From: a virus
Direction: 5' to 3' (one strand)
Length of the DNA: 39,990 nucleotides
Virus record (IMG/VR): IMGVR_UViG_3300045988_107676
Location: 1-39,990 of that record
The notes beneath the pieces were generated by a model. That model did not search any database. It worked only from the letters and a program-made list of their open reading frames with translations, and was not told where the DNA came from. Positions 5,889-39,990 of this stretch are shown here, piece after piece (within the stretch, counting starts at the first letter, position 1; every line of letters starts with the position of its first letter). The position numbers and the translations under genes are program-made.

Positions 5889-5903
5889 AGTTTTATACAC
5901 TCC

Positions 5904-6605: not shown

Positions 6606-6663
6606 AAATTCCTTTCTGTGGCGAGGTTCGGTTTGTTCCGTTTAGCAGCCACTTAAAAATTGG

Positions 6664-8525: not shown

Positions 8526-8642
8526 TCAATCCTCCGGGCCGTTAAGCCACTCGCTGAATATCTTTGTTGCGTACTGCTCCTGCGCCTTTGGATCGTCCCC
8601 TAACGCCCACAGGATCAGGCGCTTGAGCCATCGTCTTACCAT
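8526..8642 (-). CDS. Small ORF between terL and portal (38 aa)
   Basis: MVRRWLKRLILWALGDDPKAQEQYATKIFSEWLNGPED. Its ATG overlaps the terL stop (ATGGTAA), and its stop lies 1 nt before the portal ATG. Confidence 0.4.
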   Translation of the reverse strand: MVRRWLKRLILWALGDDPKAQEQYATKIFSEWLNGPED

Positions 8643-10299: not shown

Positions 10300-10371
10300 C
10301 TTCGGCACCTCCCTTCGTTTTCTTCCCGCCCTATCCCTCCCGGTGTCTACTATGCCGGGCTACCATATATG

Positions 10372-11160
10372 TCACCACACCACCGTGATACGCTTGTCGC
10401 CGTGCTTATTGCACCCTAACAGCAATGTCTGTGGCTGCTCTGCATCGCTCTCGCTGCTGGGGAGTAGCATCTTGCGTGCTGCGTAACCGCCGTAATGCTG
10501 CCATGCTGTGCAGCTTACTACGACCAATTGCTTTGTAGTCACCTTATTGTTTTTGCTGTCTACCACGATCTTTTTGGGCTTGGATACCGTCCCTTTGTGG
10601 GTATGCCCTACTATCAATGCGTCAATGCCCTCGATGGTGTTTGCAAAGCGCTCGTTGCGATTGACTGTTGCACCTGTGTAGATCCCGCCGCCGGAGCCGT
10701 GTGTAACCGCCATCGTGTAGGTCACCAGCGATGTATCCCTGTTGGTGCGTGTCCCAAGCTGTAGCTTGACAAATGCCACATCCTCTGCATATCTGTCCTC
10801 CAGATCCAGCTTGCACATGATGTCGCCCATAATGTCTTGGTCGGTGTCCTTGGCCGTCCTTGCCTCGTGATTGCCAGATACAGCACACAAAATCTTGTTT
10901 TTGATTGGTGTCAGCATCTCCACCATCAGCTTTTTTTGCTCCCTCGGCCGCAGATAGTCCTCAAACGGGCTGCCTGCGGCATGGCGGGTATTGTTGTTGA
11001 TTAAATCCCCGCCGAGGATCACATAGGCGTCCTCCGCCTCCACCCGGCGGCAGAAGTTTTCCCATCCTGCTTTGTCGTGCAGGATGCTCCCAAGATGCAC
11101 ATCCGATACGGGATATATCTTTGCGGCCTTCCCCGGCAGCCTGTGGCATATCAACTCCAA
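10372..11160 (-). CDS. Calcineurin-like metallophosphoesterase
   Basis: Canonical motifs occur in order: DVHLG, GGDL, GNHE, GHTH. It has a TTG start with AAGGAGG 8 nt upstream. Confidence 0.85.
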   Translation of the reverse strand: MELICHRLPGKAAKIYPVSDVHLGSILHDKAGWENFCRRVEAEDAYVILGGDLINNNTRHAAGSPFEDYLRPREQKKLMVEMLTPIKNKILCAVSGNHEARTAKDTDQDIMGDIMCKLDLEDRYAEDVAFVKLQLGTRTNRDTSLVTYTMAVTHGSGGGIYTGATVNRNERFANTIEGIDALIVGHTHKGTVSKPKKIVVDSKNNKVTTKQLVVVSCTAWQHYGGYAARKMLLPSSESDAEQPQTLLLGCNKHGDKRITVVW

Positions 11161-24510: not shown

Positions 24511-25629
24511 ATGCTCTGTAAGAAGTGCAAAAAGGAATTACAGGATGATTGGCTCTACTGCCCTTGGTGCGGTTTGAACGCAAAAAAAGACTCACGCAGG
24601 GCGATATCGCAGCGAAAAGACGGGACATACCAAAAAGCAATCACAATTGATGGGAAGCGCAAGTATTTTTACGGGAGATCAGAAAAGGATGTCATAAAGA
24701 AGATTGCAGAATTCAGCAGGGAGGCGGAGGATAAGCGGTCTGCTGCATTTGCCGTATATGCCGAAGCGCTGGAGCAGTCTTGGGACAACCTCGCATACAA
24801 TTCCCTTCGAGGGTACAAGCCTGCGCTCGTGCGATGTGTCGCTACGTTCGGGAAAACGCCTGTCGCAGACATCACGCCGATGCAGGTGAAGGGTTTCCTC
24901 GATAAGGTTGGAAAGACATTCTCGCAAAAAACCGTGAACACGCAGAAGAACATAACGAGCCAAGTGTTCGACCTCGCCATCCTCGCCGGGGACATACAAG
25001 TGAACCCTGTTGCAAACATCAAAGCGACCGGGAAGAAAACAAGCGGGCGGGAAGAAGCATCGCAGGAGGATCGGGAAAAGATCGCAGCCCATTGGGACGA
25101 TTGCGCCGTATCACGACTTGGTTACTTCATTATGATGACCGGGCTTCGTGTTGGAGAAGCACTTGCTCTGCGATACGAGGATATCGACAGGGATAAAAAC
25201 CAAATCCATGTTACGAAAAGCGTATACTATGTCGGCACTACTCCGAACATAAAAAAGCCAAAGACGGACGCAGGGGTCAGGACGGTATTCCTCCTGCCGG
25301 ATGTCGCAGAACGATTCAATGGGAAGAATGGTTACATCTTCACGAATGAAAAGGGAGAAATCCTTCGAAGCAATGAATCGTCCCGCAATTGGAGAAAATG
25401 GTGTAAAAATTACGGAATATGCTGCACATTCCACCAGCTTCGGCATAGCTTCGCAACATCTTGCTGCGAGGCAGGGATTGACAAAGCCGTTGTCCAAGGG
25501 ATGATGGGGCATTCCTCCTACATCGTGACGGAAAAGTACACCCATCTGCGTGACAAAATGTTGGAGGATGCACAGGCCAAATTTACTACATCACTTTTAC
25601 ATCACACGGATGCAAATACAAAGCAATAA
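24511..25629 (+). CDS. int: Tyrosine recombinase (phage integrase) with an N-terminal zinc ribbon
   Basis: CKKC...CPWC at the N-terminus. Catalytic signature: LRVGEALAL(R), HQLRHSF (H-x-x-R), and GHSSYIVTEKYTH (H...Y). Confidence 0.92.
   Translation: MLCKKCKKELQDDWLYCPWCGLNAKKDSRRAISQRKDGTYQKAITIDGKRKYFYGRSEKDVIKKIAEFSREAEDKRSAAFAVYAEALEQSWDNLAYNSLRGYKPALVRCVATFGKTPVADITPMQVKGFLDKVGKTFSQKTVNTQKNITSQVFDLAILAGDIQVNPVANIKATGKKTSGREEASQEDREKIAAHWDDCAVSRLGYFIMMTGLRVGEALALRYEDIDRDKNQIHVTKSVYYVGTTPNIKKPKTDAGVRTVFLLPDVAERFNGKNGYIFTNEKGEILRSNESSRNWRKWCKNYGICCTFHQLRHSFATSCCEAGIDKAVVQGMMGHSSYIVTEKYTHLRDKMLEDAQAKFTTSLLHHTDANTKQ
25583..25601 (+). repeat. Direct repeat copy 1 (candidate integrase arm-type site)
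   Basis: ttactacatcacttttaca matches 25771..25789 (ttagtacatcacttttaca) at 18 of 19 positions. It lies inside the int 3-prime end. Confidence 0.6.
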
Positions 25630-25678
25630 ACAGCAATAAACGCAAAGTATCGAAATGGAGAAAAGCCGCATAAACAAA

Positions 25679-25706
25679 GGAAAACCCCGCATTTCTGCGG
25701 GGTTTT
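25679..25706. terminator. Rho-independent terminator downstream of int (also follows the tRNA-like end on the other strand)
   Basis: AAACCCCGCA-tttc-TGCGGGGTTT is a 10-bp perfect stem, extendable, followed by TCCTTT. Confidence 0.75.
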
Positions 25707-25709
25707 CCT

Positions 25710-25734
25710 TTGGCGGAGATGGAGAGATTCGAAC
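25710..25734 (-). other. attP core candidate: 25-nt 3-prime end of a tRNA gene (fragment, not a functional tRNA)
   Basis: The minus strand reads AGTTCGAATCTCTCCATCTCCGCCA. This parses as T-loop TTCGAAT, T-stem CTCTC, acceptor strand CATCTCC, discriminator G and CCA. The upstream sequence does not form the rest of a cloverleaf. Confidence 0.7.
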
Positions 25735-25841: not shown

Positions 25842-25863
25842 CCCCCTCCAGTTACGGAGGGGG
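25842..25863 (-). terminator. Rho-independent terminator of the late operon / giant gene
   Basis: CCCCCTCC-agttac-GGAGGGGG is an 8-bp GC stem located 8 nt after the giant-gene stop. It is followed on the minus strand by TATTTTAC. Confidence 0.7.
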
Positions 25864-25870
25864 CATCTCT

Positions 25871-28800
25871 TTACCACACCTTCTCTGACACTCCGAGTGC
25901 CTCGTACAAAAGGTGCTTTTGCTTTGTGCTTGCGCCGGGAACGGCCTTATCGATAGCGGCCTTCTTTTTGCGGCTGGAGGACAGTTGGATTGTCTTCCCA
26001 TCGCCGTCTTTGTCGCCTGTGATCCCACGGGCTGCGAAGTATGCGGCGTAGTATTGGTCGTAGGTAACGCCCTGTGCGACATACTCGGCTGCCTTTTCTC
26101 CGACATCCTTGTTGTATGTCTTTAGTGCGTACTCTGCACCGAACGCCTTGCGGTTTGCTTCGCGCTTAACAACATCGCTGTCTGCACTTCCGATGCTCTT
26201 TGCGGTTTCCTCGTAGGTGCCAACGGTCAACAGGGCTTTTCTATAAATCTCGTTACGCAGCTCCAGCAGGTCACGAGCCTCGCTCATCTTCTCCTTGCGG
26301 GTCTTTTCGCCGCTGTTGTAGATTTCCTTGAGCTGCTTCGTGATTTCGGATGCAGCCTTGCTCTGCTTATACAGGTAGGAGTAGGTTGCATCATCGGCTG
26401 CTGTCGCAAGCTCGGTCTCCTTTACCTGCTTTGCTTCGTCCAGCGCATCATAGAAGTCGCTGCCCAGCCGGTTCTGCCGGACGCTATCTACCACGAAAGC
26501 CTTTACCACCGCAGGGACATCTGCTTTCTTGGAAAGCGTCGGAAGCAGCCAGTCACCGATAAAGCCGGAATACTGGTCGATCAGGTAATTGACCTTCTTC
26601 GGGGAAAGCCCCTCGATGCCGTTCTTACCGTGTCGTGTAATCTCACCGAGCCAAATGGAGAACGCATCGGTGCTTTCATCGTATTGCAGATAGTCAGGCT
26701 TTTCCTCCATGTAGCTGGAAACGATGTCGCCGCCGTACCAGGTCTTATTGGTGCTCATCGCAGTAATACCGGCGAAGATATTGTTGGTCAGCGGATTGTT
26801 CGGTGCGATCTGTTCGATGGCAAAGGACGGATAATTTGCGAATGCGCTGCTTGCCGGTTCTCCCTTCAGCCAGCGCCACATCCGATTGGTGAACGCCGTA
26901 ATGACGGATGGCTCACGCCCCATCGGGATCTTGATAAACTTGTTATCTCCGACCTTGATGAGGATGTTGCTGTCCTTCATGTAGTTGGAAAGCTCCTTGT
27001 AGTCATCGTCCTCTTTCAGCCCGTCATAAAGCAGACCCATGATGATTGCCGGGGCTACACCGTTGATGAGCAGCCGAGAGATAAGCTGACCGATTTCCTT
27101 CCAGCCGCGCCGGTCAATGACATTGCGGATGTTCTTGGAAAGGCCCTGCATACCGGGGTTGAAGAAAGGAACAAGGGACGCATTCAGCTTGCGAGCCGCA
27201 AAGCCGCCACGGCCGAAGTTCGTTGTGATGTCCGCTGCGTTATAGAGCGCCTGCTGAACATCGCCTGTGTCTTCCATCGTGCTAATAAATTCAGCAAGGC
27301 GGGGGTACTGCTCGACCGCTTCATTGGCAAAGGAGAGGATGTCGATTACTCTATTCAACCCACCAGCCACTTTATCGACTGCACCGTTCTTGAAATGGTG
27401 GCGGTCGGAAAGCCCCGTCTTTGGGTCATAATAGGTAGTTCCTTTTCCGCCCATCGCCTGATAGAGCTGCCAATACTTCCCGTTCGTTGCGATTTCCTTT
27501 ACGGCCTTGCCGTAGTTCTTAATGAATGCGGCATTGCTGTAATGGGTAAAGTACAATGCAGACTGTGCATCACGGACGAAATTTCGCACGATGAATACAG
27601 GGTTCCATTGCGTGACCAGCTTCTTGAATGTGCTGTTGATGGAGCGCAATGCTTTCATTCCAAAGGAATTGGATTGCTCAATGGGTCTAAACCCATCGGC
27701 CATTGCTTCGCTCATGTGCAGAGTAACCGGTTTGCCATCCACCCAAATGCGCAGCGTGTTCTTGAGGTTCTCTGCGGAATCCGCATCAAGGTCAACGAGA
27801 TCGCCTTCCTCTGTAACACTCTGAATGTATTCCGAGATATCACGGGTAGTATCCATTGCATCTTCATACAGCATATTGCCCAGAATGTTCTTCTTGGCTG
27901 CGGAGAAGGTCTGCAAGGTCTGCCTGGCAATACTGTCGATCAGCGGCATGATATCCTGGTTGCCACCTTTTGCGGACTTGATGGTGCTGTTCACCGCAAC
28001 GATGTTGGGGTTGGAGTAGCCGCCGGAGGTGCTGGGCATATCGCGGTAGGTGGGAACATAGTGCGGATACAGTTCCTTCATGTACTGTGCCATATCGGCG
28101 CTAACGAGTCCTCCCTGCTTTCGCACCTCCATCAATCCGTCAAGGTAGGCATACACATCCTTTGCCCACTTCTCGAATTCTGGGTGTGCCTCCAGAAGGG
28201 CTGCGGCAGCGGCCCGGCTGTCGTCTGCCGTAACCTTGCTGCCGAATACAGGCTTGTCAAACTGCTTTTCAGCCCATGCCTGCAGTTGCTTATACCGCTT
28301 TGCAGCATCGATCTGTTCCATGGTGTATGTCTTTGTAAGGGAAGCATCTTTGCCTGCGGCTGTTGCAATGTTCTCATCGGTCATTTCCGCAAAGCCTTTG
28401 ACTTTCTTGTTCAGTTCCTCACGGAATGCCGATAGCACCTTCTGTGCTTTTTCACGGACGCTCATGCGGTCAACATTGTGTTCATGCAGGAGGTATGTGT
28501 AGAATTCCTTGGTCAGCCCCGCCTTTTCAGCAGGCTCAAATACCTGCATGAGGTTCTTATCGCTGATTTTCACACCGTTCAAATCGTACTGCCCGGCGCC
28601 GCCAATGGAATACTGCGCCGCCGCAGCTGCCTGCCCGACATTGTTCGCTGCATACATGATTCTGCTGTCGCCGACTTCGTTCCCGAATCGCTCCAGTTCG
28701 TCCTTGGTGTTAATCCATTGGCGCTTGAAGGTTCTCCAGCTTTCAGCGATTTTTGCCTTAAAAGTCTCCTTGCCCTTATTCGGCATTTCGGTCAGAACCT

Positions 28801-31800
28801 TGGCAACATCTTCCGTAGTGGTGGATTTCTGTTCCGCCGTCCTCAATCGGGCTTTGCTCTTTGCTCTGTCTTCCTGCACCACACGATCGATGCGATCCTG
28901 CTGGCGTTTCCGATTGTATTCATCCTTTGCTTCGGACAGCTTTTCGTTGTACTTGTCCCGCATCTGCAGATTGTTCGCACGGAGGTCGGCACGGTATTGC
29001 TTGGCAAGTGCATCATATTTCGCCATGAATTCTGCACGGGCCTTTGCTGCCTTCTCTCGCTCTTTAGCAGCTGCTATTTCGGTGAGGAGTTTCGTCTCTG
29101 CATCACGCCAGCGGTCATTCATCTTCGCTTCCGCAGTTGCCTGCTGGCGATAGTCAGCAAGCTGCTGACGGATATTCTTCACCTCGGCTTGTGCAGCCTT
29201 TAGCTCATCGTTTGCTTTCTCGGTTGCTTCGGAAACAACCCTGTCGATGTCGGCCATGTACTGGGCATCTTCCATGAGGGAGTAGCTGCCTTCGGATTTC
29301 TCCTTCAGGAAGCGGTCAACAATGTCGTGTGCGACAGGGAGTTTTCCGTGGCCGCCTTTGTACTCGCTCAACATCTTGGCATTGTAGGCATCATCGAAGA
29401 CAGGTTTGACTGCTTTCTGCGGGGCGCCAACCCCATCGTTGTTGTACATCTTGTAGTCGATGAGCAGTTTCCAGTAGCCGGGATACTCGGTGAGGCTCTT
29501 ACCCTCATACATTACTTCAGCAAATTTGGGTGTGCGACCGTCAGCTCTGCACTTCTCAAGGTAAATCTGTGCGTTCTCATCGCCTGTCTTGCTGAAGTCC
29601 CAATATTCAGCCGGGTCATAGTTTTCGATCTTCGTGCCAGCTTTCTTCTCGTTCTGATAGTCCGTAAAGTCCTCATACCATTCAAGACCAAGGGACTTAT
29701 ACAAGGAGGCGCTCCAGCTCGATTTGTGGAACGGGATGATGAAGTCGATCTCTGGATCAGACATCGCAGTGACGATATGCTTTACATTCTTGCCGACGAG
29801 AATGGTACCAACATTTTCGCTGAAGCGGGGGTCGTTGCGAATTGAAAAAGCCTCATAAGCAGGCATTCCTTCTACATCGTCAAAAATAAGTTTCCCATTT
29901 GCGTCCACCCCATCTCCTTTTGCGATAAGCGAAAGGTTGATTTTGATGCCAGTGCGCCCCATTGCTCTCGCAAACGAAGGGACTTTCGTGTACGCCTGAC
30001 CTTTTAAGCCCATCGAGGCCATATCGTACACAGCTTGCATCATATCGATGAGGTGGGGAACCTCAAAGTCAGAGAAGGATTGGATGCGAAGCCCACCATG
30101 GGAGTTCCGGCGGCTCACCTGCCCCTTTGTCATGTTAAGGATCTCACCACGGTAATCCGTCCGTGTCTCTATCATCTTTGGCTTCTGCTGCCCTCTTGCA
30201 TTCATATAGGCATTGAATGCCTTATAGACTTCTGGATGCTCCGCCTGCAAACGGTCAATGCCTTCTGCGGTCACGAGATCCGCAAGGGTGGGGGTAAACC
30301 CTTTCTCCGGATAAACGAACCGATTCGGGTCACTGTTTTCTATCCCCTTGCTGGTTGTAAGATCCTTTGTCTGCCCGGAAGCATTCACCTTCTTTATGTT
30401 TGCGCCTTCCGCCTGCGCTTTTCTGTACTGCTCAACAAAGCCCTCGGATATTGTAGAGAATTCCCTTCTTGTGGACTCTACGTAGCAAATGCCGCAAGCT
30501 ACCTCGTACCCGGAATCCTTCATGATTTCACGGAGGTGTACGAAGTCTTCGCTTGTAAGAGGGGTATTCGGAAGTGCAGATTGGATTGCGTCCATCGTGC
30601 CGGAGAAAAGAAGCCGCTTTGCGCACAGCGTGGAAAAATCGAGGCTGAAGTCATATTCAGAGTTTGGCTTCAAGGATGTATTGTTGCGGTTGGCCTCATA
30701 ATCAAGCCGCGCCTTGTCATCGCCGATAATAGCTGCCACGCTATAGACGGACTTAATCCAGTCCGTTGCCAACTGAACAGAAACGCCGGTTGCCTTCGCA
30801 AGTCTTGTTGCATACTTGACCTTGTCCGTACCAAGTTCGCTTTCACTCAACGACATGAGGGAATACCGGTTGGGAGCCGCAGACCCTTCTCCTGTCACGG
30901 CTATTCCGATATCTTCGTACCCTTCCGGAAGGGCAATATCAACATCGCCGTTTCCAACAATTTTGACCTTGCTGGAATCCAATAATGCATCTTCTTTTGC
31001 GGAATACTCACTATCCATTGCAGAAGCATCCATGAGGGAGTAGCGGATATCCTTGCTTTCGGTTGGAGCGGTATTGTCAATGTTCTTAAATTGACTACTG
31101 TCAAACGCCACATACACGGTGGCGTTATCATATTTGCCCTCTACAATGTATCCGTCATAACCAAGCGTGTTTCGAGCCGCTTCAAGAACGGTTCCGGAAC
31201 CTGCTCCGCCGTTTGCAATCTCCGCAAGGATTTCGCTATCACTATCGCTATATTCCATAGCTGCCTTTACGGTAGCATCCAGCGCACGGTTATACCATGT
31301 TTTTGAAGGGTACCCAATACCGCCGGCAGGGTCGTAATTCACAAGCACTTCATCACCGGTCGGGTCAACAGCCTGCAAAAGTTTTTTTACTTCTGCCCTT
31401 GTCAGCGTAATCTCGCTATCGCTCAACGGCTTTTTGATATCAAGGTACCCCTCAAGGAGTTGTCCGCCGTCCTTTTGGTAGCCCTCTGCCATCGGCTTGT
31501 AATCAGTGAAATAGAAGCCTTGCCCCTCGGAACTGCCATGCTGGGACATGAAATCGGGGGAAAACTCGGTGAACACCGCAGGGCTACCATGATATACAGG
31601 TTTCAACCTGCCCTCTGCGTCAACGACTTTGGAGCCGAAGAAATACTCCCGCTGCTCGGCAGTAAGCTCCCTGCCAGTACTGTCCATTGCCGGGATATCC
31701 ATAAGGGAATGTTTCCCGCCAGCATACTTCCCAAGGCCCAGTTGTTCCAGCGTCTTTTCGCCGCCTTGGCGCTTCGGAGGGGTTATCCCCTTGCTTTCGA

Positions 31801-34800
31801 GAATTTGTTCTACGTCGCTGTCGGAAAGAATGCGGTTTACCTTCATCGCGCCAGTGATGAGCCACGGCACTGTGTCCGGGCGCGGGTTTGTCCGGTATTT
31901 ATAATACCCATCGACAGGGAGTTTCGGCAGACCAGCAAGGGAGTGTTGGAACTTCCCGGACTTCGTATAGCCGTAGGACATTGCTTCCTCTTGGTAGTCA
32001 ATATCTGCCGCAACAAGGCACTCTGCCCAAACAAAGTTTGAAGGGAATAACTCTTTCTTCCCGGTTTCCGGGTTGAGCCGATCGAACTGGTTTGCTACCG
32101 GTACTTCGCCAAGATGCCAGCCCGGTCTAAAAGCAAGGCTTCCGCTTCCACCCTGTGTTCCTTTACCACCAGCCTTAACCTGCATTCGACCGGTTTTGCT
32201 GTCCGGTGCGCGCTCCCCGATATCCGCATTAAGCCACACGCCAACCGGGGTATCTTCCGCATTTGGGTTAGCGACCATCGGGGGATAGAGTTTTCCATCC
32301 TTCACGACAAACACCTTATACCCCAAAACGGTTTTCTCGGGAGGTGCTTCCTCTCTGATGGAGTACTTCACATCCTCACCGATTGCCGGGTCTGCAAATA
32401 TGTTTCTCGCCCCATCTTCCATACCGTCAATCAAAGCCCGCTGCGCTTCGGATAGCCTGTTATAGGCTTCCTGTGCAGAGGGCTTTCCTTTTAGCTTTTT
32501 GAGGATACGGTTCAAGAAACCTCTAATGCCGGTGGCGGCTTCCGTATTTCTTGCGCCGATGTACTCCAGCATATCCCGGCTGCCCAAAAGATCACCGCTG
32601 ATATCGGCAGCGACTTCCTCCGCAGCTGCATTCGGGTCAAGCTCAATCCCATTGCGCTCGTACAGTTCGGTTTTGGCATTCATCATGCCCTTTACCATAT
32701 CGGCATAGTCTGGGTTCTCTACCAGCGTATCAATCAGCCCGGAATACTTGCTATCAGCTACAAGGTCGTGAAACATCTCATGCCCGAAAGTAACCATCAG
32801 CGGATCGCGGGAATTGATGTTGACATAAATGGTGCCATCCGGTGCGCGATAGCCATTGGTCAGTCGGTACTGCCCATTGACCTGCACCGCACCCTCAAAC
32901 CACACGATAGTCTTGCCAAGGTATTTCGCAGCGCCTTCGACCGCATTGACTGCGGGTTTCTTGCTGTTCGGGATTTCAGCTTTCTTATAGCCAATCTCGG
33001 TATTTCCGCGCACATCGGTATTGGTGATTTCACGCACATGGCGTTTGCCGTCTATATCGATATCGGTGTTCTGCTCGATGGACAGCCAGCGTTCCAGGCT
33101 CTCCTGCTCAAGCACATCGGCTTCCGCTTCCGCTTTGGCTTCCAGTTCGGCAGTCGCCCTTTCTGCCGCTTCGGTCATGCGCTCCGTGTACTCTGCTTCG
33201 GATACGACCTGCTTTCCTGTTTCGCCCAGCTTCTTGGTCGCCACCTCGATGGCAGCAATATCCGCGGCAGGGTTCCCTGTGTACTCAATCCCTGCCAGCT
33301 TTGCAAAGGACTCTCTCGCAGCAGGGTCGTTGTAAACCTTCTGCGCTGCGCTTTGGTTTGCAGGAGCGCCTTGAATTGCGCTGTTGTAGGCGACTTCCCC
33401 TGCGTTGGCAGGATTATCTACCATCTGCGAAAAAGCCTGTTCTACGCCATCCTGTGCTGTTCTAATAGCAGCTTCCTTCTGCTTACTGAAAACCTCGGTC
33501 ATAACCGATTCGGGAGTGGGTTTTACACCCAATGTTTCCGCAGCCTGGACGATGGCGTTGGCGTTGTTCATCATGGCCTTCAGCTCTCGGATGGACAGCT
33601 GTGTGATATCCCCTTGGATTTTGGAGAGGCCGCTTTCCGCATCGAAGGACTGGTTCGCCTCGAACAGTCTGCCGAGCATCTGGGGGGTGGGCTTCTTCTG
33701 CGCTTCCGCTGCATAGATGGCAGGGGCTGTGCCTTCGCCCTTGCTCAAGCCTTCCTCGATCTGCTGCTGTACTGCAGCGGGGGATTTCTTGAGGGTCTTG
33801 CCCAAGCGGTTATAGTTGACGGCTCGTGTCGTTGCGTTCGCACCGCCCAAGACGCCACCTGCGAGAGCGCCGAGGAGCATATCGTACCAGATATTGTCCA
33901 TCTCATCACTTTCGCCTGTAAGGGCTTTTTCGATGGCGTAGTTCACGGCATCTTCGAGGCCCTCCTCCACGCCTTCAGCCAGGGAGTCACGCAGCAGCTT
34001 GCCGCCGACAGAATTGGCGAATGCGTACAGTGCGGGGTTCTCCGTGACGAGTTTCTTTTGGAGAGCCTGCCCGACCTTGCTGTCCCATGCCTTGCCGTAG
34101 ATACCGCCGAGCTGCTCGGAGCCGTATGCCGCAAGCCCTGCGCCCATTGCAAGTGCAAACGCCATGTTCGGGTCGTCATACTTCTCCGTGGCTTCAACGA
34201 ATTTGTTTCCCGCAGCGGAGGAGGACATGAAAATCAGACCGGCCTGTGAGCCGGGCGCAACGAGATTGAGTGCAAGCGAAGGCGCCATGTTGAAGATGGT
34301 ATTGCCGAGCTGGAGACCAAGCCGTTCCAAGCCGTGTGTGCTTTCCACATTGCGCTCGTGACGGATCTCTGCCTTGGTCTTATAGTCGAGCATCGGAACC
34401 TTGCGCTCCGTTTCGATACCGGAAAGTTTCTGCGCTTCAAGGCCGTTCATGCCGCTGTCGATGAGCTGCTTTGCCTTCCACGCCTCCTCTCTGCCGGGGC
34501 CGTTAGCATAAGCAGCCATCATCGCTGCGTTCTGCCCAAAGGACTGGAAGGCGTTCTGTATGCCGGAAAGAGCCATGTCCCCCGCCTTGAAATGATTGTC
34601 GTTGGGGTTATAGTCCTCAAGCTCCTCCATGTTCTTTTGGGTCTTATATGCAGACCGGGCGTTTTCATACTGGTATCCGAGTTCGGATGCAATATCCCGC
34701 TGCTCCTTCGCCTGCTGCTGCATATTCCCTGCACGGCTGTATGCGCCAGCTTTGATGAGAGCATCGTCACGCTGCTTCTTCAGCGTATCGACGTTCTGTT

Positions 34801-35020
34801 TCATGGTTTCGCTTTCGGGCTTCCTCGTAACGCTTTCCGGCTTCATCGCTGCGCTTTTCTGCTTTGCCGGAGGAGCAGGAACGCCCCTTGCAGGTTTTGC
34901 GCTGTAGTTGAGGTAGTTCCTCTCCAGCTCGGAGGCAGTAAGGCCGTATTCTGTTGTGCCGTTATTGTAATTCTGTTCAAGTTCCTCGGCTGTGTAGCCG
35001 TAAGTTTTTTCTTTGCCCAT
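25871..35020 (-). CDS. Giant multidomain polyvalent-type protein (about 3,049 aa) with zincin metallopeptidase and ART-like modules
   Basis: The ORF is uninterrupted, and the ATG at 35020 has GGAGG 5 nt upstream (the ORF is open to 35035). HEMFH lies at 32768..32782. VYHGS...GQGFYFTDY lies at about 31046..31708. A Cys motif ACGICYVES lies at 30473..30499, with a long coiled coil at about 28830..29230. Confidence 0.85.
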   Translation of the reverse strand: MGKEKTYGYTAEELEQNYNNGTTEYGLTASELERNYLNYSAKPARGVPAPPAKQKSAAMKPESVTRKPESETMKQNVDTLKKQRDDALIKAGAYSRAGNMQQQAKEQRDIASELGYQYENARSAYKTQKNMEELEDYNPNDNHFKAGDMALSGIQNAFQSFGQNAAMMAAYANGPGREEAWKAKQLIDSGMNGLEAQKLSGIETERKVPMLDYKTKAEIRHERNVESTHGLERLGLQLGNTIFNMAPSLALNLVAPGSQAGLIFMSSSAAGNKFVEATEKYDDPNMAFALAMGAGLAAYGSEQLGGIYGKAWDSKVGQALQKKLVTENPALYAFANSVGGKLLRDSLAEGVEEGLEDAVNYAIEKALTGESDEMDNIWYDMLLGALAGGVLGGANATTRAVNYNRLGKTLKKSPAAVQQQIEEGLSKGEGTAPAIYAAEAQKKPTPQMLGRLFEANQSFDAESGLSKIQGDITQLSIRELKAMMNNANAIVQAAETLGVKPTPESVMTEVFSKQKEAAIRTAQDGVEQAFSQMVDNPANAGEVAYNSAIQGAPANQSAAQKVYNDPAARESFAKLAGIEYTGNPAADIAAIEVATKKLGETGKQVVSEAEYTERMTEAAERATAELEAKAEAEADVLEQESLERWLSIEQNTDIDIDGKRHVREITNTDVRGNTEIGYKKAEIPNSKKPAVNAVEGAAKYLGKTIVWFEGAVQVNGQYRLTNGYRAPDGTIYVNINSRDPLMVTFGHEMFHDLVADSKYSGLIDTLVENPDYADMVKGMMNAKTELYERNGIELDPNAAAEEVAADISGDLLGSRDMLEYIGARNTEAATGIRGFLNRILKKLKGKPSAQEAYNRLSEAQRALIDGMEDGARNIFADPAIGEDVKYSIREEAPPEKTVLGYKVFVVKDGKLYPPMVANPNAEDTPVGVWLNADIGERAPDSKTGRMQVKAGGKGTQGGSGSLAFRPGWHLGEVPVANQFDRLNPETGKKELFPSNFVWAECLVAADIDYQEEAMSYGYTKSGKFQHSLAGLPKLPVDGYYKYRTNPRPDTVPWLITGAMKVNRILSDSDVEQILESKGITPPKRQGGEKTLEQLGLGKYAGGKHSLMDIPAMDSTGRELTAEQREYFFGSKVVDAEGRLKPVYHGSPAVFTEFSPDFMSQHGSSEGQGFYFTDYKPMAEGYQKDGGQLLEGYLDIKKPLSDSEITLTRAEVKKLLQAVDPTGDEVLVNYDPAGGIGYPSKTWYNRALDATVKAAMEYSDSDSEILAEIANGGAGSGTVLEAARNTLGYDGYIVEGKYDNATVYVAFDSSQFKNIDNTAPTESKDIRYSLMDASAMDSEYSAKEDALLDSSKVKIVGNGDVDIALPEGYEDIGIAVTGEGSAAPNRYSLMSLSESELGTDKVKYATRLAKATGVSVQLATDWIKSVYSVAAIIGDDKARLDYEANRNNTSLKPNSEYDFSLDFSTLCAKRLLFSGTMDAIQSALPNTPLTSEDFVHLREIMKDSGYEVACGICYVESTRREFSTISEGFVEQYRKAQAEGANIKKVNASGQTKDLTTSKGIENSDPNRFVYPEKGFTPTLADLVTAEGIDRLQAEHPEVYKAFNAYMNARGQQKPKMIETRTDYRGEILNMTKGQVSRRNSHGGLRIQSFSDFEVPHLIDMMQAVYDMASMGLKGQAYTKVPSFARAMGRTGIKINLSLIAKGDGVDANGKLIFDDVEGMPAYEAFSIRNDPRFSENVGTILVGKNVKHIVTAMSDPEIDFIIPFHKSSWSASLYKSLGLEWYEDFTDYQNEKKAGTKIENYDPAEYWDFSKTGDENAQIYLEKCRADGRTPKFAEVMYEGKSLTEYPGYWKLLIDYKMYNNDGVGAPQKAVKPVFDDAYNAKMLSEYKGGHGKLPVAHDIVDRFLKEKSEGSYSLMEDAQYMADIDRVVSEATEKANDELKAAQAEVKNIRQQLADYRQQATAEAKMNDRWRDAETKLLTEIAAAKEREKAAKARAEFMAKYDALAKQYRADLRANNLQMRDKYNEKLSEAKDEYNRKRQQDRIDRVVQEDRAKSKARLRTAEQKSTTTEDVAKVLTEMPNKGKETFKAKIAESWRTFKRQWINTKDELERFGNEVGDSRIMYAANNVGQAAAAAQYSIGGAGQYDLNGVKISDKNLMQVFEPAEKAGLTKEFYTYLLHEHNVDRMSVREKAQKVLSAFREELNKKVKGFAEMTDENIATAAGKDASLTKTYTMEQIDAAKRYKQLQAWAEKQFDKPVFGSKVTADDSRAAAAALLEAHPEFEKWAKDVYAYLDGLMEVRKQGGLVSADMAQYMKELYPHYVPTYRDMPSTSGGYSNPNIVAVNSTIKSAKGGNQDIMPLIDSIARQTLQTFSAAKKNILGNMLYEDAMDTTRDISEYIQSVTEEGDLVDLDADSAENLKNTLRIWVDGKPVTLHMSEAMADGFRPIEQSNSFGMKALRSINSTFKKLVTQWNPVFIVRNFVRDAQSALYFTHYSNAAFIKNYGKAVKEIATNGKYWQLYQAMGGKGTTYYDPKTGLSDRHHFKNGAVDKVAGGLNRVIDILSFANEAVEQYPRLAEFISTMEDTGDVQQALYNAADITTNFGRGGFAARKLNASLVPFFNPGMQGLSKNIRNVIDRRGWKEIGQLISRLLINGVAPAIIMGLLYDGLKEDDDYKELSNYMKDSNILIKVGDNKFIKIPMGREPSVITAFTNRMWRWLKGEPASSAFANYPSFAIEQIAPNNPLTNNIFAGITAMSTNKTWYGGDIVSSYMEEKPDYLQYDESTDAFSIWLGEITRHGKNGIEGLSPKKVNYLIDQYSGFIGDWLLPTLSKKADVPAVVKAFVVDSVRQNRLGSDFYDALDEAKQVKETELATAADDATYSYLYKQSKAASEITKQLKEIYNSGEKTRKEKMSEARDLLELRNEIYRKALLTVGTYEETAKSIGSADSDVVKREANRKAFGAEYALKTYNKDVGEKAAEYVAQGVTYDQYYAAYFAARGITGDKDGDGKTIQLSSSRKKKAAIDKAVPGASTKQKHLLYEALGVSEKVW

Positions 35021-35040
35021 GATACCTCCAAACATAAAGG

Positions 35041-35775
35041 TTATTTGTCAAGCCCCATTCCGATGAATTTAAGCGCATCTGCGTGAGAAAGGCCGGTTCT
35101 GCGCGCTTTGTTGTAGGCTTCCTGCTGTGCCTTCTTGTATGCTTCGTTCTCCGTAGTGTAGGACTTTACTCTCGGTGCGTTCTGCAAACCTGCCGTGTAG
35201 CTGGCCTGTGCATTCATCTTGCCTGTCTGCGGGTCTCGGTTCGCATTCACCATATCAAGGTATGCACGGCTCACGGCATCGGAGTAGTCGCTGTCACCTT
35301 CGGCAAGGCTTCTTGCATAGCGGTTGTTCAGCCTGACATAGGATGTTTCTGCAAGGCCGCCGTTGATCCCCTCACGAGCAAGCTGCCCCGGCATATTCTT
35401 GAGTGCCATCTCCTTGGCGATGTACGCTCTGCGTGCGTTGTCCTCACGGTTCTGTGCCGCCAGTTTCTTCTGCTCGTCATACATCTGCTGGTTGTATGCA
35501 AGGAGCTGGTCGTAGGCCGCAGTCTGTGCATCGAGCTGGGCTTTCAGCGAGGCAAGATACTGATTCCGCTCGGAGCTGTCATAGCCCGTGCGACTTGTCG
35601 GTGTCTTCCGCAGTTTGTTCTGTGCGGCGACTGCATCAGCTACAAGGTTCACCCAAGAGTCGTCCTTTTTCCCTACTTGGCTGCCGCTGCCCGCAATAGC
35701 GTTCGCTACACCGCCGCCGGCACGTGGTTTGCTTCCACCGTCATTCACCATGTTCATGTTGCTTCTATTCGCCAT
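35041..35775 (-). CDS. Hypothetical Gln/Ala/Asn-rich protein (possible internal virion protein)
   Basis: 244-aa ORF with an AAGGAGGGG RBS, one nucleotide after the amidase stop and immediately before the giant gene. Confidence 0.6.
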   Translation of the reverse strand: MANRSNMNMVNDGGSKPRAGGGVANAIAGSGSQVGKKDDSWVNLVADAVAAQNKLRKTPTSRTGYDSSERNQYLASLKAQLDAQTAAYDQLLAYNQQMYDEQKKLAAQNREDNARRAYIAKEMALKNMPGQLAREGINGGLAETSYVRLNNRYARSLAEGDSDYSDAVSRAYLDMVNANRDPQTGKMNAQASYTAGLQNAPRVKSYTTENEAYKKAQQEAYNKARRTGLSHADALKFIGMGLDK

Positions 35776-35776
35776 A

Positions 35777-36484
35777 TTACCCCTCCTTCGCCGCCGTATC
35801 GTACTGTTCGATGGCGGCTAAAATTCTGCCACGCAACGCCTGTGCGGATGCGTGTTCGGTTCTGTACTTCTCTTTGATTTCTTCCAGCTCGGCAAGAAGT
35901 TTGTCATAGTCGGTCTGCGGTTTTTCTTCCTCTTTGTAGGTCACGCCGAACCAGTCGCATACACCTTTGCAGAGTGCCTCGGCAATGCGCTTTTTGTTTT
36001 GCACAATCCAAATAGCATCCTGTCCGTTGTCATGGAATGCGATTTCGGGATAGATGGAAAGCATGGGGGTTCTGCCGATCTCGTAAAACTCGTCCTTCTG
36101 ATAGACCCCTCGGTGGGTGTTCCGGGGGTAAATCTCCATCAGTCTGCGGTAGACCATTTGGCAGGCCCTGTCGCTGATGCCTCCGGCTCTGCCGTAGCGC
36201 AGGACGGTCGGCCCCTGTGCAGTCCCTTCTTTCAAGGTGGCCGTGCTTGCGTTGGTATGGATGGGCATATGGAGGTTGGATTGCAAAGCGATGCTTTCGG
36301 CCACTCGCTCCTGCATCGTCTTGTCGGGGGATGCGACCATCACATCAAACCCGCAGCGGGTGAGAGCCTCGGCGCAATAAGCGCCGATCTCTACACACAC
36401 GTCATGCTCGTACACACCCGGAAAGCCGTAGTACGGGGCATGGGGAGCCGGTCTGCGTTCGGGGGAAAGATACACTTTAGGCAT
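35777..36484 (-). CDS. N-acetylmuramoyl-L-alanine amidase (Amidase_3-like endolysin)
   Basis: Pattern KVYLSPE...E...PIHTNAS...YPEIAFHDN, consistent with the zinc ligands and catalytic Glu of type-3 amidases. It follows a holin-like gene. Confidence 0.8.
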   Translation of the reverse strand: MPKVYLSPERRPAPHAPYYGFPGVYEHDVCVEIGAYCAEALTRCGFDVMVASPDKTMQERVAESIALQSNLHMPIHTNASTATLKEGTAQGPTVLRYGRAGGISDRACQMVYRRLMEIYPRNTHRGVYQKDEFYEIGRTPMLSIYPEIAFHDNGQDAIWIVQNKKRIAEALCKGVCDWFGVTYKEEEKPQTDYDKLLAELEEIKEKYRTEHASAQALRGRILAAIEQYDTAAKEG

Positions 36485-36803
36485 CTTTCACCACCTCCTC
36501 AAGAGGGAATTCCTCCTCTTTGACCTTTTTAACCATGCCGGTAGTTGCTGCATCATAAGTACCGCCGGCAGCCAAGGCCACGATAACCGCATTGAGCAGG
36601 CACAGGATAACGCCCTGCACCGTCAGCTCGGCTCCCGTAAACGCTTCTGCGCCCACGAGGATGAGTGCGGACACGATATAGGCCAATAGGTTAGTGTTGA
36701 TGTTCCGCAGGGGAGTCTGCTTCAAAAACTGGGTGATGATGGTGACCATCATGACTGAACCTGCGTAAGTACCGAGGGAAGTCCAAGTTACAAATTCGTT
36801 CAT
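36477..36803 (-). CDS. Holin (three predicted TM segments)
   Basis: 108 aa with TM-like stretches GSVMMVTIITQFL, LLAYIVSALILVGAEAF and VILCLLNAVIVALAAGG plus a charged C-terminus. It overlaps the amidase start. Confidence 0.6.
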   Translation of the reverse strand: MNEFVTWTSLGTYAGSVMMVTIITQFLKQTPLRNINTNLLAYIVSALILVGAEAFTGAELTVQGVILCLLNAVIVALAAGGTYDAATTGMVKKVKEEEFPLEEVVKDA

Positions 36804-37353: not shown

Positions 37354-38694
37354 TTAGTTCACCCCCATAATGTTAAGAGCGTTGAGCGCATCTGCCGTAA
37401 CCGATGTTCCATCAACCAATTCCCATTGAGATGTTGCGCTGTTATAAATGTATGCACTTTGCCTATCAGCATAGTTAGCATCATTCCCAAGCCACACACT
37501 TTCAACATCGCACATTACCTCTGCATCTTTGCTTTTTACTAATGCAATTTTATTTTTTGGTATAAACGCCTCTTGAATAAATAAAACATCCTTGTCAAGA
37601 ATTGTTTTTGGAGTAACCTTTAACACCGATGTATCGTTGGCAGAATTTGATATAAAGAATATGGAGTTTCCATATGCTCCACAGGCACCCATTCCTTGAT
37701 ACTCTTTATTTGTTATTTGTCCAACATTTTGAATTGTCTCTGTTGCTGGGTCGAAAATACAAAGATAATTGTATTTTTCATATGTAGAATCTGGCTGGGC
37801 AGAAATCATATAAATTTTTCCAGCAAAAAGACACGCCGAAATACATTGTCCAGCATGGGGCAAGACGGCCGGCAAAACAGTAGTTGCGTTGTCGGCTATG
37901 CTATACTTAACAATCTCATTCGTAACACTGCCTACATCACCACTTTCAATGGTTTTCCTTCCACCAAATAAATACACTGTATTGCCGACTGGAACTGCTG
38001 CCATAGAACTACTTCTTTTTGGTAATGTAGTGCCGTATGTCGCAGAGTCTTGAACAGTATCATATATCCAAACAGTGTTATAGCTGCCACTGCCATTTGT
38101 CGCAGAATACCCGCCGCCAAACTGATACACCTTCTTGTTCACTATTACAGACTGCATCCATCCAATAGTGTTCCTTGCAAATTTTGAGCTTGTGCCAAGC
38201 TGTGTGCCAGTTCCAGAAGACAAATCAAACTTAACAGCACCATTGTACCAAATGTTGTCCGAAGTGTTTATCCCACCATTTATGTATGCAAACCCATCAC
38301 TTATGGCAACGGAAGAATATTCAACACCTATCGGTGACTGACCAACATATTCCATTGTATTTGTTTCCATATTGTATCGTAAAAGATATGGTAACCTTCC
38401 ACCAATACAGTAAATGTATTTTCCATCAACAAAATATCCAGAACTTAATCTACCGTTTTTGGTTTTTAACACGTTTGCCTGCGCAGCTTGAGATGATGCC
38501 ACTCCGTTTACCATCGTTATTTCTTCATGCATATTATCGCCATATGATAACACAGTATCGGCTTTAACCTTATCCGGCTTCTTCGCCAGCGGAACCCACA
38601 GCTTACTTGTGTCTGCGGGAGGTGTGGAGCCAAAGTAGATGTTCAAATCAGCTCCACCGCCACCCAGCGTAATGGGATTTCCTAAAATACTCAT
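37354..38694 (-). CDS. Kelch-like beta-propeller fibre / receptor-binding protein, paralog 2
   Basis: Repeated Kelch-type strands: KYIYCIGGR, GFAYINGG, KKVYQFGGGY, NTVYLFGGR, GKIYMISA. The N-terminus (MSILGNPITLGGGG.DLNI...KLWVPLAKKP) and C-terminus (...ALNIMGVN) are shared with the neighbouring paralog. I prefer the ATG at 38694. Confidence 0.7.
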   Translation of the reverse strand: MSILGNPITLGGGGADLNIYFGSTPPADTSKLWVPLAKKPDKVKADTVLSYGDNMHEEITMVNGVASSQAAQANVLKTKNGRLSSGYFVDGKYIYCIGGRLPYLLRYNMETNTMEYVGQSPIGVEYSSVAISDGFAYINGGINTSDNIWYNGAVKFDLSSGTGTQLGTSSKFARNTIGWMQSVIVNKKVYQFGGGYSATNGSGSYNTVWIYDTVQDSATYGTTLPKRSSSMAAVPVGNTVYLFGGRKTIESGDVGSVTNEIVKYSIADNATTVLPAVLPHAGQCISACLFAGKIYMISAQPDSTYEKYNYLCIFDPATETIQNVGQITNKEYQGMGACGAYGNSIFFISNSANDTSVLKVTPKTILDKDVLFIQEAFIPKNKIALVKSKDAEVMCDVESVWLGNDANYADRQSAYIYNSATSQWELVDGTSVTADALNALNIMGVN

Positions 38695-38718
38695 ATTCAC
38701 CCTTTCCGGGGTGAGTAT

Positions 38719-39990
38719 TTAGTTCACCCCTAATATATTTAGTGCGTTCTGCATATCCGCTACATAGCTTTCACCCGAAAGAGATTTCCATTTGAGGTCT
38801 TTGCTATCGTAAAGGTATGCGTTTGTTAATTGTGCGATATTGTTACTGTCCCCAAGGTAGGCATTGATTACCTTAACCTTAAAGTCAGTATCTTTGGATT
38901 TAAGTGCTGTCCACAGTCCATCGTAGCCGTAGTCCTCTTGGAGGAACAGGTGGTTGCTTGTGAGGGGAGAGGAGACCGTAAATGTATGAACATTACTTGC
39001 ATAACCAACAATATACCACTTATTGTTCGCAAACCCGACAGCGGAATATGTGACATTTTCTGCAAAGGTATTATTAAGTTTTTCTGCCGTCAATGTTTCT
39101 AAATCAACCTTAACGATGCCATTCCTGTATAGTGTTGAAGCAGAGCCAAATATATAAGCATATTTTCCTTGACGAATTGCTCTACAAGTGCTATTGATTT
39201 CATACGGAAGAATTTGTACTTGCTTAAATTCACCTGTTTTTATGTTGTAAACCTGCACATGTTTTGAAGGGTCGTAGGAAAAGGCTGTAATTCCACCGAA
39301 AACATATAGGTTGTCACCACTCGCAACGCATGAAGAGTTATATGTGTTTTGCGCTGCATTCGGAAGACTCCCTGAAAATACAAAATCGTCAGCAATCGTA
39401 TCATAAACAGCAACAGAAGATTCATAGGAGTTTCCATATCTTGTGCCCAAAAGATAAATTTTTGTGCCGTCGACACATCCGCTTAAAAAATAGCCGCCGT
39501 TCGTAACTGGCCAAGAAAGGTTGTTCAGGCTAATGTATGAAGCATTGTTTGTTGTTACATCATACTTTGCAACTCCACTGGGAAAAAACATATATATTAT
39601 GTTTCCAACAGAAAACGATGGCTGATTTTTGTAAACAGAAAAAGCGTTTATGCTTGTATCTAACGGCAAAGTTACCTTTTCTCCTGTGGTTACATCATAT
39701 CTGACAATAAGCTCTACATAGGAACCAACATAAGGTTGCGGGGCAAACACATAATTACCGTACTGACAGTAGCATGGTGTATTCATTTGAAATGTGTTAT
39801 ACCCTGTTCCAAACGGAGCCAACGCAGGAATTTCGTTCCCAAAAGCTAACGCAGGACTACACTCCACAGCACTCGGCTTTGTTGCCAATGGCACCCAGAG
39901 CTTGGTGGTATCAGAGGGAGGATTTGTACCGTAATCAATGTTGAGTTTTACCCCCCCCCAGCTGGTAACAATTGGATTGCCATAAATTAC
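38719..39990 (-). CDS. Kelch-like beta-propeller fibre / receptor-binding protein, paralog 1 (runs off the window end; true start at 125..123 across the circular junction)
   Basis: Motifs NIIYMFFPSG, TKIYLLGTRYG, DNLYVFGG and KYAYIFGS, with a C-terminus ending ...ALNILGVN. The in-frame extension through 39990, then 120..125, gives MSVIYGNPIVTSWGGVKLNIDYGTNPPSDTTKLWVPLATKP, homologous to the paralog 2 N-terminus. Confidence 0.75.
   Translation of the reverse strand, partial: VIYGNPIVTSWGGVKLNIDYGTNPPSDTTKLWVPLATKPSAVECSPALAFGNEIPALAPFGTGYNTFQMNTPCYCQYGNYVFAPQPYVGSYVELIVRYDVTTGEKVTLPLDTSINAFSVYKNQPSFSVGNIIYMFFPSGVAKYDVTTNNASYISLNNLSWPVTNGGYFLSGCVDGTKIYLLGTRYGNSYESSVAVYDTIADDFVFSGSLPNAAQNTYNSSCVASGDNLYVFGGITAFSYDPSKHVQVYNIKTGEFKQVQILPYEINSTCRAIRQGKYAYIFGSASTLYRNGIVKVDLETLTAEKLNNTFAENVTYSAVGFANNKWYIVGYASNVHTFTVSSPLTSNHLFLQEDYGYDGLWTALKSKDTDFKVKVINAYLGDSNNIAQLTNAYLYDSKDLKWKSLSGESYVADMQNALNILGVN
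39872..39990. repeat. Terminal overlap copy B (identical to 1..119)
   Basis: Same 119-bp string as 1..119. It could be an assembly closure overlap or a short direct terminal repeat. Confidence 0.95.

Follow-up and report, generated by a model that had tools for sequence, protein, structure and literature searches.

The window analysed here is the whole 39,990-nucleotide stretch of the IMG/VR virus record IMGVR_UViG_3300045988_107676 (positions 1 to 39,990), and its main feature is a single giant gene on the minus strand. The source is a temperate, short-tailed (podovirus-type) phage of the human gut, and the giant gene product is probably a phage-type polyvalent protein that is packaged in the virion, is injected with the DNA and doubles as the ejection protein of this phage. 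The gene and its expression signals were located as follows.

25871..35020, minus strand: giant gene, 3,049 aa from the ATG at 35020, which is backed by a ribosome-binding site (RBS); an in-frame ATG at 35035 adds 5 residues
35025..35029, minus strand: Shine-Dalgarno sequence GGAGG, with a 4-nt spacer to the ATG at 35020
25842..25863, minus strand: intrinsic-terminator hairpin CCCCCTCC-N6-GGAGGGGG, an with a G+C stem of 8 bp and a T-rich run behind it, immediately downstream of the stop codon

The open reading frame (ORF) was uninterrupted on the minus strand from 25871 to 35035 (3,054 codons counted from the first ATG, the count followed by the residue numbers below). The start at 35020 was judged better than that at 35035 on the grounds of the GGAGG sequence and the matching gene calls, the 3,049-aa product being 100% identical to the gene-caller prediction P0001. 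The single ORF of ~9.15 kb with an RBS and its own terminator, and the end coordinate 35020, therefore stand as an earlier sequence-only reading of this DNA had given them. The preceding gene ends at 35041, ~20 nt from the giant gene, which places the two genes in one operon. The first 119 bp of the window recur exactly at its end (1-119 and 39872-39990), and from this terminal direct repeat a closed circle with a true genome length of 39,871 bp was deduced, and the genome share put at roughly 23% in that reading was calculated as 22.9% of the circular genome. Such a gene could also be an assembly chimera of cassettes from co-occurring strains, since the cassettes described below are 88-99% identical among strains from the same sample type and the adjacency of two of them (the ADP-ribosyltransferase (ART) cassette and the linker cassette) is peculiar to this architecture. 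A chimera is nevertheless very improbable, because a second assembly contig (39,926 bp) encodes exactly the same 3,049-aa protein, the contig circularises through the 119-bp overlap, the reading frame is unbroken over 9.15 kb, and the sequence that the junctions have in common is only 12-16 nt, which is shorter than usual assembler k-mers.

The protein was divided from the N-terminus to the C-terminus into the following parts.

34343..35020, minus strand: N-terminal region (aa ~6-231), helical by sequence, poorly conserved even in close relatives, without a family match
33581..34342, minus strand: hydrophobic module (aa 232-485) with three Gly/Ala-rich stretches
32354..33058, minus strand: putative gluzincin metallopeptidase module (aa 660-894), 96-98% conserved among close relatives
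~32603-32620, minus strand: EEVAAD, an ExxAD motif (E807, A810, D811)
31700..32353, minus strand: cassette B (aa 895-1112), with phrog_30118 (function unknown) at aa 905-1084
31031..31699, minus strand: ART cassette (aa 1113-1335), with Pfam ART-PolyVal (PF18760) at aa 1139-1325
30854..31030, minus strand: short acidic linker cassette (aa 1336-1394), with YSLM on both sides
29273..30853, minus strand: cassette D (527 aa, aa 1395-1921), with invariant C1471, C1514, C1517 and C1829
28832..29272, minus strand: charged helical (coiled-coil-like) stretch (aa 1922-2068), the start of the constant C-terminal arm
26183..28285, minus strand: conserved C-terminal core (aa 2251-2951), almost all alpha-helical by prediction, common to other podovirus giant proteins
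26522-27010, minus strand: Pfam LPD38 (PF18857) inside the conserved core (aa 2676-2838)

The whole protein and ten separate segments were scanned against Pfam. Two families exceeded their cut-offs, namely ART-PolyVal (E 6e-22, 79.3 bits against a cut-off of 31.2; 86.9 bits with the segment alone) and LPD38 (E 1e-35, 124 bits against a cut-off of 27; profile positions 1-173 of 189), and the segments added nothing significant. Both families are specific to the polyvalent class and lie far above their cut-offs, so that the assignment to this class, which had been proposed from the sequence alone, is well founded; the accompanying statement that most of the domains are undescribed likewise holds. 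Whole-protein searches of PDB sequences and NCBIfam gave no matches.

The C-terminal 1,000 residues, previously taken to be free of motifs, were found to hold LPD38 inside a larger conserved core, and the charged coiled coil of ~130 aa noticed ahead of them corresponds to the charged helical stretch at aa ~1930-2068. The core is also covered by phrog_14770, a giant-protein family (aa 2287-2934), and contains a hydrophobic helix (aa 2648-2670) followed by an acidic DDDxxYxELSxY motif. When the protein was compared with 50,697 phage records by tblastn, only aa ~2284-2979 were matched (21-24% identity, E 1e-9 to 5e-18), and the matches included the C-terminal parts of proteins of Stx phages (ORF78 of P13374, 2,806 aa) and of Ralstonia phage GP4 of the Bcep22-like group (gp68, 3,224 aa), for which the direct core match amounted to 22-24% identity with E 1e-9 to 1e-18; further matches were found in Vibrio phages VvAW1 and FGH, Thalassomonas phage BA3 and Bacillus phage Palmer. 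A profile search with the core against PDB sequences found nothing, and narrow hidden Markov models built from close relatives left ORF78 of P13374 undetected.

Proteins of the LPD38 class have been reported from virions or as needed for infection. In phi24B, gp47 (2,811 aa, LPD38) was abundant in virions by mass spectrometry (MS), was invisible in cryo-electron microscopy and was proposed to be an ejection protein (bioRxiv 10.64898/2026.04.10.717836), gp69 of Burkholderia phage JC1 (4,515 aa, LPD38) gave the second-highest virion MS score with 51 peptides (PMC9144972), and efficient infection depends on PTXU04_00025 of an E. coli phage, in which LPD38 is the only annotated domain. Putative ejection proteins of very large size have been recognised in short-tailed phages (PMC8402733), and LPD38 is listed as phage-specific by Iyer et al. 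(PMC5512222). By analogy with these published proteins, the giant protein would likewise be packaged, and the role in packaging and ejection suggested earlier, with a possible function as an ejection protein, is the best-supported reading, given a core homologous to those of the podovirus giants (E 1e-9 to 1e-18).

In the N-terminal arm, three uncharged Gly/Ala-rich stretches of at least 17 aa, the only ones in the protein, start at aa 243, ~289-293 and 386; these are the hydrophobic stretches that had been noticed near the N-terminus, and the module formed by them is proposed to insert into the membrane. Among 150 distant giant proteins bearing cassette D, the hydrophobic module was found at a constant relative position in 14, 75 and 115 over three profile rounds, in the later of which the profile may have drifted. 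A diverse profile located the zincin module in 98 of the same 150 in its first round and in 134 in its second, always in the N-terminal third. An LPD38-type core was present in 19 of them, against 115-134 for the hydrophobic module and gluzincin, so that the N-terminal architecture is the more general hallmark and there must be other C-terminal arms, perhaps for other virion types. A match of LPD14 to the hydrophobic module (E 0.16) was not significant. An N-terminal lytic transglycosylase, as in JC1 gp69, was considered on account of a weak Pfam SLT match (aa 132-190, E 0.033) and rejected, because the AYANGPG-like motif is not kept in close relatives and the catalytic half of the profile is unmatched.

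The segment VTFGHEMFHDLV lies at aa 748-759, with HEMFH at 32768-32782, exactly where a zincin motif had been placed. In an alignment of 12 such modules (the query and 11 distant ones, 18-26% identity), H752, E753, H756, E807 and A810 were the sole invariant columns. HExxH combined with ExxAD is the signature of the gluzincins, to which the module is provisionally assigned by motif. Of the zincin peptidase proposed earlier, the HExxH sequence thus stands, in a truly conserved metallopeptidase-type module, and the link to Pfam MPTase-PolyVal does not; when the 12 homologous modules were scanned, this family was absent from the best matches listed for them at E<=1.

The ART cassette carries the motifs VYHGS (aa 1147), GQGFYFTD (aa 1171) and LLEGY (aa 1193). 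Across 67 distinct ART cassettes, H1149 was kept in 66/67 and D1294 in 67/67, position 1175 was Y or F, and E1195 was kept in 48/67. E1195 of LLEGY is therefore probably not the catalytic acid, and judged by conservation the third catalytic residue is more likely D1294, giving a predicted H-Y-D triad. The ART segment delimited earlier by YHGS and LLEGY was accordingly retained, on the profile match and the motifs, with the exception of LLEGY as the source of the catalytic acid.

Cassette D gave no Pfam, PHROG, NCBIfam or PDB sequence match, and a profile search against PDB sequences returned coiled-coil noise only. In an exhaustive HMMER search of 1.84 billion cluster representatives it was found in 2,227 proteins at E<=1e-3 and in 1,115 at E<=1e-30; the best 150 of the 2,227 were nearly all 1.1-4.7 kaa long and were 46-62% identical across the domain. 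Plasmids in PLSDB contained none, and GenBank phage records yielded one marginal partial match (Moorella phage MTATph1, 86 aa, E 7e-5). Besides the four cysteines, two of which lie in the ACGICYVES motif found at its previously reported position (30473..30499, aa 1513-1521), many polar residues at strand ends were invariant (for example GGLRxQSFSDFE and IPFH). The AlphaFold model of D was confident (pLDDT 86, pTM 0.84) and showed a repeated beta/alpha core. Foldseek with this model found one uncharacterised viral protein in BFVD (E 3e-20) and nothing at E<=1e-3 in PDB, where the best E was 0.5 and the weak tail consisted entirely of TIM-barrel and radical S-adenosylmethionine (radical-SAM) enzymes. 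An identification as a radical-SAM or Fe-S (beta/alpha)-barrel enzyme was rejected, because D has C...CxxC...C and not CX3CX2C, and because the radical-SAM/TIM-barrel matches were confined to the non-significant tail (E 0.5 in PDB, 0.3 in BFVD). On its modelled fold and cysteines, D is read as an unclassified, widespread, putative metal- or Fe-S-binding enzyme domain.

A homologue search with the giant protein returned 805 proteins, and its mosaic structure was analysed in the query and the best 120 (121 proteins), the latter mostly from contigs of ~9-45 kb, among which are numerous near-complete genomes (37-40 kb), with a few from prophages within longer contigs. All 121 proteins retain an N-terminal arm (aa 1-894) at 62-95% identity and a C-terminal arm (aa 1922-3054) at 87-98%, and the middle modules varied in presence, absence and order; cassette B occurred in only some relatives, and D preceded ART in P0002, against ART before D in the query. 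By splitting the sequences at [YH]S[LIVM][MQR], ~10 cassette families and >20 architectures were obtained, even when 13-residue spacer segments were ignored. Most of the variable cassettes, judged by sequence motifs, look like ART-PolyVal variants with different inserts, and others held MuF_C or LPD3. Some relatives (P0090, P0099) had two different ART-type cassettes in one protein, and Pfam gave two ART-PolyVal stretches in P0090. Because of the different inserts the ART-like cassettes range from 152 to 449 aa, a range that suggests diversified target specificity. The junctions of the query were as follows.

32354..32365, minus strand: YSIR (aa 891-894), between the N-terminal arm and cassette B
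31700..31711, minus strand: HSLM (aa 1109-1112), between cassette B and the ART cassette
31031..31042, minus strand: YSLM (aa 1332-1335), between the ART cassette and the linker
30854..30865, minus strand: YSLM (aa 1391-1394), between the linker and cassette D
29273..29284, minus strand: YSLM (aa 1918-1921), between cassette D and the C-terminal arm

The motif stood at every cassette boundary of the query and the breaks between relatives fell exactly there, with the left flank of the motif always going with the upstream cassette and the right flank with the downstream one; the DNA unit shared at the junctions was only TA[CT] TCC CT[CT] ATG. In the 150 distant giant proteins a related motif with the consensus D-I-[RQK]-[YF]-S-x-[RK]-[DE], counted in the form [YFH]S.[RKM][DE], was 2.4-fold enriched (141 against 59.6 +/- 7 in shuffled sequences), and [YFH]S.[RKM] occurred at most 40 residues from the ends of D in 72/130 cases on the C-terminal side and 42/130 on the N-terminal side, compared with 4.5% of random windows. 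The density of [YFH]S.[RKM][DE] was 0.33 per 1,000 aa in proteins with the zincin and 0.08 in those lacking it (about 4-fold; p = 0.006, with n=14 in the smaller group). As the counted sequences share ancestry, the p-values for the motif overstate independence.

Iyer et al. proposed that polyvalent proteins are processed by a peptidase embedded in them, with no sites defined (PMC5512222), and text searches of that paper brought up no conserved inter-cassette junction motif. Cutting by the gluzincin at the junction motif, with release of the cassettes, is plausible here, though rather less likely than not. We also hold, as a tentative and rather doubtful joint proposal, that the giant protein is a phage polyprotein in which the motif ([KR]-[YH]-S-[LI]-[MR]; wider D-I-R-Y-S-x-R-D) serves as the gluzincin site, so that effectors are freed after injection and the motif doubles as a cassette-exchange joint, and that D is a new metal- or Fe-S-dependent enzyme family with anti-host or anti-defence activity, found only in the giant proteins of uncultured phages. 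A somewhat short of even chance is given to the motif being a recombination or linker feature of a protein that stays uncleaved, whose zincin would attack host proteins or peptidoglycan peptides. The breakpoints do fall exactly in the 12-nt motif with nearly uniform codons (TCC 5/5), the virion RNA polymerase (vRNAP) of N4 and some plasmid polyvalent proteins are transferred unprocessed (PMC5512222), and the authors of the phi24B study propose a peptidoglycan-degrading role for a metallopeptidase domain; yet the synonymous changes at the junctions (TAC/TAT, CTC/CTT) preserve the amino acids, a related motif marks domain ends in proteins too diverged for DNA homology, and the motif co-occurs with the zincin.

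The remaining features of the genome, with which the position of the giant gene was interpreted, were as follows.

10372-11160, minus strand: calcineurin-like metallophosphoesterase gene, just upstream of a small-terminase-like ORF (9976-10308) and the large terminase
8636-9979, minus strand: large terminase
6821-8524, minus strand: P22-like portal
between portal and capsid in the gene order, minus strand: scaffold-like protein, 233 aa
4959-5900, minus strand: capsid
122-1876, minus strand: collagen-like fibre, 584 aa, matching PHROGs tail/tail-fibre families (best E 4e-58) and with prominent collagen triple-helix repeats
37354-38700 and 38719-39894, minus strand: two adjacent Kelch-repeat beta-propeller proteins in the tail-fibre region
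36477-36803, minus strand: holin-like gene, upstream of the giant gene
35777-36484, minus strand: Amidase_3 endolysin, upstream of the giant gene
35041-35775, minus strand: gene for a helical, Gln/Ala-rich 244-aa protein, directly upstream of the giant gene
25711-25734, minus strand: 24-mer, attP core, between the giant gene and the integrase
24511-25629, plus strand: tyrosine integrase, downstream of the giant gene

The late genes lie on the minus strand in an order that wraps around the contig ends, from terminase through portal, scaffold-like protein, capsid, small structural genes and a 634-aa virion protein to the collagen-like fibre, the two Kelch-repeat proteins, an 85-aa ORF, the holin-like protein, Amidase_3, the 244-aa protein and the giant gene. 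In this portal-terminase phage the giant gene thus closes the late/lysis operon. Neither a tape measure, tail tube or sheath gene nor a recognisable prohead protease could be found; the absence of tape measure and tail tube genes noted earlier was reproduced, and the lack of these genes indicates a virion of the short-tailed type. The genome contains no other candidate ejection protein. The 244-aa upstream protein had no Pfam or PHROG match, its neighbourhood to the giant gene is kept in relatives (244 aa in L006, 257 aa in L005), and a role as partner, chaperone or further internal protein is conceivable. The stretch of the Kelch genes has a G+C content of 0.41-0.42, compared with ~0.53, and these proteins are probably recently acquired receptor-binding proteins. 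In the prophage relative L005 no Kelch gene was called in the examined part of the locus; a radical-SAM enzyme lies there upstream of the lysis genes (5126-7917) beside a small protein with a faint 'tSAM_targ_Cxxx_rpt' match, which looks like a maturase/substrate pair resembling those of ribosomally synthesised and post-translationally modified peptides inside a phage tail module.

The 24-mer was identical to the exact 3' end of bacterial tRNA-Ser(GGA/CGA) genes in 13/16 gut-metagenome loci checked by pattern search, and the window holds no complete tRNA. An attP site beside the giant gene had been suspected; from this match the 24-mer is taken as the attP core, and the phage should integrate in a tRNA-Ser gene. 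When the downstream region of the giant gene was aligned with the prophage end in L005 no common att site was found, L005 being integrated elsewhere, and an Rfam scan of the attP region gave terminator-like hairpins and partial matches only. A strong G+C hairpin, GGAAAACCCCGC-N-GCGGGGTTTTCC, at 25676-25708 between attP and the integrase end has the appearance of a bidirectional terminator. One relative is integrated in a bacterial contig of 184 kb, and there the prophage ends with the giant gene, beyond which lie the host genes uvrA and uvrB. Its placement after holin and amidase, which had been called unusual, is the rule for such giant genes in podoviruses, in which they stand at the end of the late operon. 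A scan of a genome collection found two loci only, in metagenome-assembled genomes of Angelakisella/Oscillospiraceae, so that the host assignment is tentative; other related sequences came from human gut metagenomes.

The last position before attP and the prophage end is also the classic one of a 'moron', and the protein has toxin-type domains (ART and zincin), so that it might act outside the virion, in the lysogen or in the cytoplasm late in infection, by poisoning the host, modifying it or excluding superinfecting phages. We consider this improbable, since the gene is co-oriented with the late operon at a distance of ~20 nt and has an RBS, since LPD38 is in common with virion proteins and the core matches giants of their phage groups, and since the family searches revealed neither a signal peptide nor a secretion domain.

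The preferred reading, that of a packaged and injected polyvalent protein doubling as an ejection protein, would proceed as follows. The protein would be made late, from the last cistron of the structural/lysis operon, and be incorporated into the procapsid via its constant parts, and it would leave through the portal and tail before or along with the DNA. The three N-terminal Gly/Ala-rich helices and the hydrophobic helix of the C-terminal core may help to span the envelope or membrane, and the middle cassettes, namely the putative H-Y-D ADP-ribosyltransferase, the cysteine-rich, metal-/Fe-S-type D and cassette B, would be carried to the host cytoplasm. There, if it cuts its own chain, the gluzincin would most likely do so at the [KR]-[YH]-S-[LI]-[MR] junctions, and the effectors would be freed as separate proteins.

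Several points weigh against this reading. The ORF, the domain content, the homologies and the motif-marked cassette mosaic were observed directly; virion presence, ejection and cleavage, together with all the enzyme activities, are inferred. The AlphaFold model of the C-terminal core was of low confidence (pLDDT 60, pTM 0.32) and Foldseek gave no structural match for it, so that it cannot be tied by structure to T7 gp14-16 or to the ejection proteins of P22. The three Gly/Ala-rich stretches are only moderately hydrophobic, none of them reaching the usual Kyte-Doolittle threshold. Pfam MPTase-PolyVal was matched neither by the whole protein (E<=0.1) nor by the aa 690-900 segment (E<=10), and the nearest PDB sequences were M13 peptidases (PepO/neprilysin), whose alignments bring both motifs into register but do not reach significance (E 0.04). 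The junction motif, in which the Ser codon is TCC at 5/5 junctions, could be a 12-nt recombination microhomology, or else a C-terminal cap inherited with each domain; its statistics are inflated by relatedness as stated above, and the Stx-phage homologue, ORF78 of P13374, has no repeated motif. A prophage-end position beside att is also typical of lysogenic-conversion genes.

The protein might also be accessory anti-defence cargo only, injected like P1 DarB and dispensable for DNA entry, with other, so far unrecognised small proteins penetrating the envelope. Homologues, including those of the C-terminal core, are routinely annotated as 'DarB-like antirestriction', the ART-type effectors that dominate the variable middle suggest an arms race, and the 244-aa upstream protein and several small structural ORFs lack an assigned function. 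This restricted role appears unlikely. The N6-adenine methyltransferase and SF2 helicase of DarB had no Pfam, NCBIfam or PHROG match in the giant protein, and in their absence the label 'DarB-like' does not apply to it; none of the 121 relatives lacks either arm, whereas the effectors differ, a pattern more in keeping with a structural core; and PTXU04_00025, with LPD38 as its only annotated domain, is needed for infection to be efficient. What DarB and the giant protein have in common is that both are large, packaged in the capsid, injected and protective at entry, for the giant protein by supposition.

Among known systems, the phage-type polyvalent proteins (Iyer, Burroughs, Anand, de Souza, Aravind 2017, J Bacteriol; PMC5512222) resemble the giant protein in combining ART-PolyVal, an LPD domain and a zincin in one huge chain, in the late-gene setting of a portal-terminase phage and in their extensive domain mosaicism; it differs from them in that its zincin lies outside Pfam MPTase-PolyVal and D and cassette B belong to no Pfam or LPD family. 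With the podovirus LPD38 giants (2.2-4.5 kaa) it has in common a share of ~20% of the genome, the position as last gene of the morphogenesis operon and a P22/933W-type portal. For phi24B gp47, JC1 gp69/Bcep22 gp75 and PTXU04_00025 the presence of LPD38 is taken from their papers, ORF78 being a close homologue of phi24B gp47. The sequence N-terminal of aa ~2260 is unrelated to theirs, which carry LPD5/LPD1/MuF-C or methylase, helicase or lytic-transglycosylase domains, and their hosts are Gram-negative, whereas the host of the phage studied here appears to be of the Gram-positive-type Oscillospiraceae. Prophages phi1 and phi4 of Clostridium clostridioforme LM41, from gut Clostridia, have 8-kb ORFs that take ~20% of the genome at the prophage 3' end; these ORFs are similar to the LPD3 polyvalent domain, and a role in protecting incoming DNA was suggested (PMC11318856). 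They are likened to the giant gene by description only, the paper giving no domain dissection. T7 gp14/gp15/gp16, P22 gp7/gp16/gp20 and N4 vRNAP are alike in the proposed behaviour (storage in the capsid, ejection through the tail, and a trans-envelope path or enzyme delivery), functions that in the giant protein would be fused in one chain. PDB searches found no sequence similarity to them, Foldseek with the core was empty but used the low-confidence model, and no N4-type single-subunit RNA polymerase domain was matched in the giant protein by Pfam or PDB sequences.

The polyvalent class and the podovirus LPD38 giants are thus already known, the giant protein belongs to both, and its gene does not represent a system of a new kind. 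Apparently undescribed so far are the organisation into arms and cassettes with a defined junction motif, the N-terminal gluzincin and hydrophobic module that are near-universal in a large family of uncultured-phage proteins, and domain D. Polyvalent giants take a fifth of many small phage genomes, and their delivery, their cutting and the roles of most of their domains are little understood. More than 100 near-identical gut phages that differ in the cassettes between two constant arms, with the joints marked by a motif, form a natural experiment, in which the constant arms stand out as delivery machinery and D as a large, unclassified, enzyme-like domain. With a defined protease and defined candidate sites, the autoprocessing that Iyer et al. 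hypothesised becomes directly testable.

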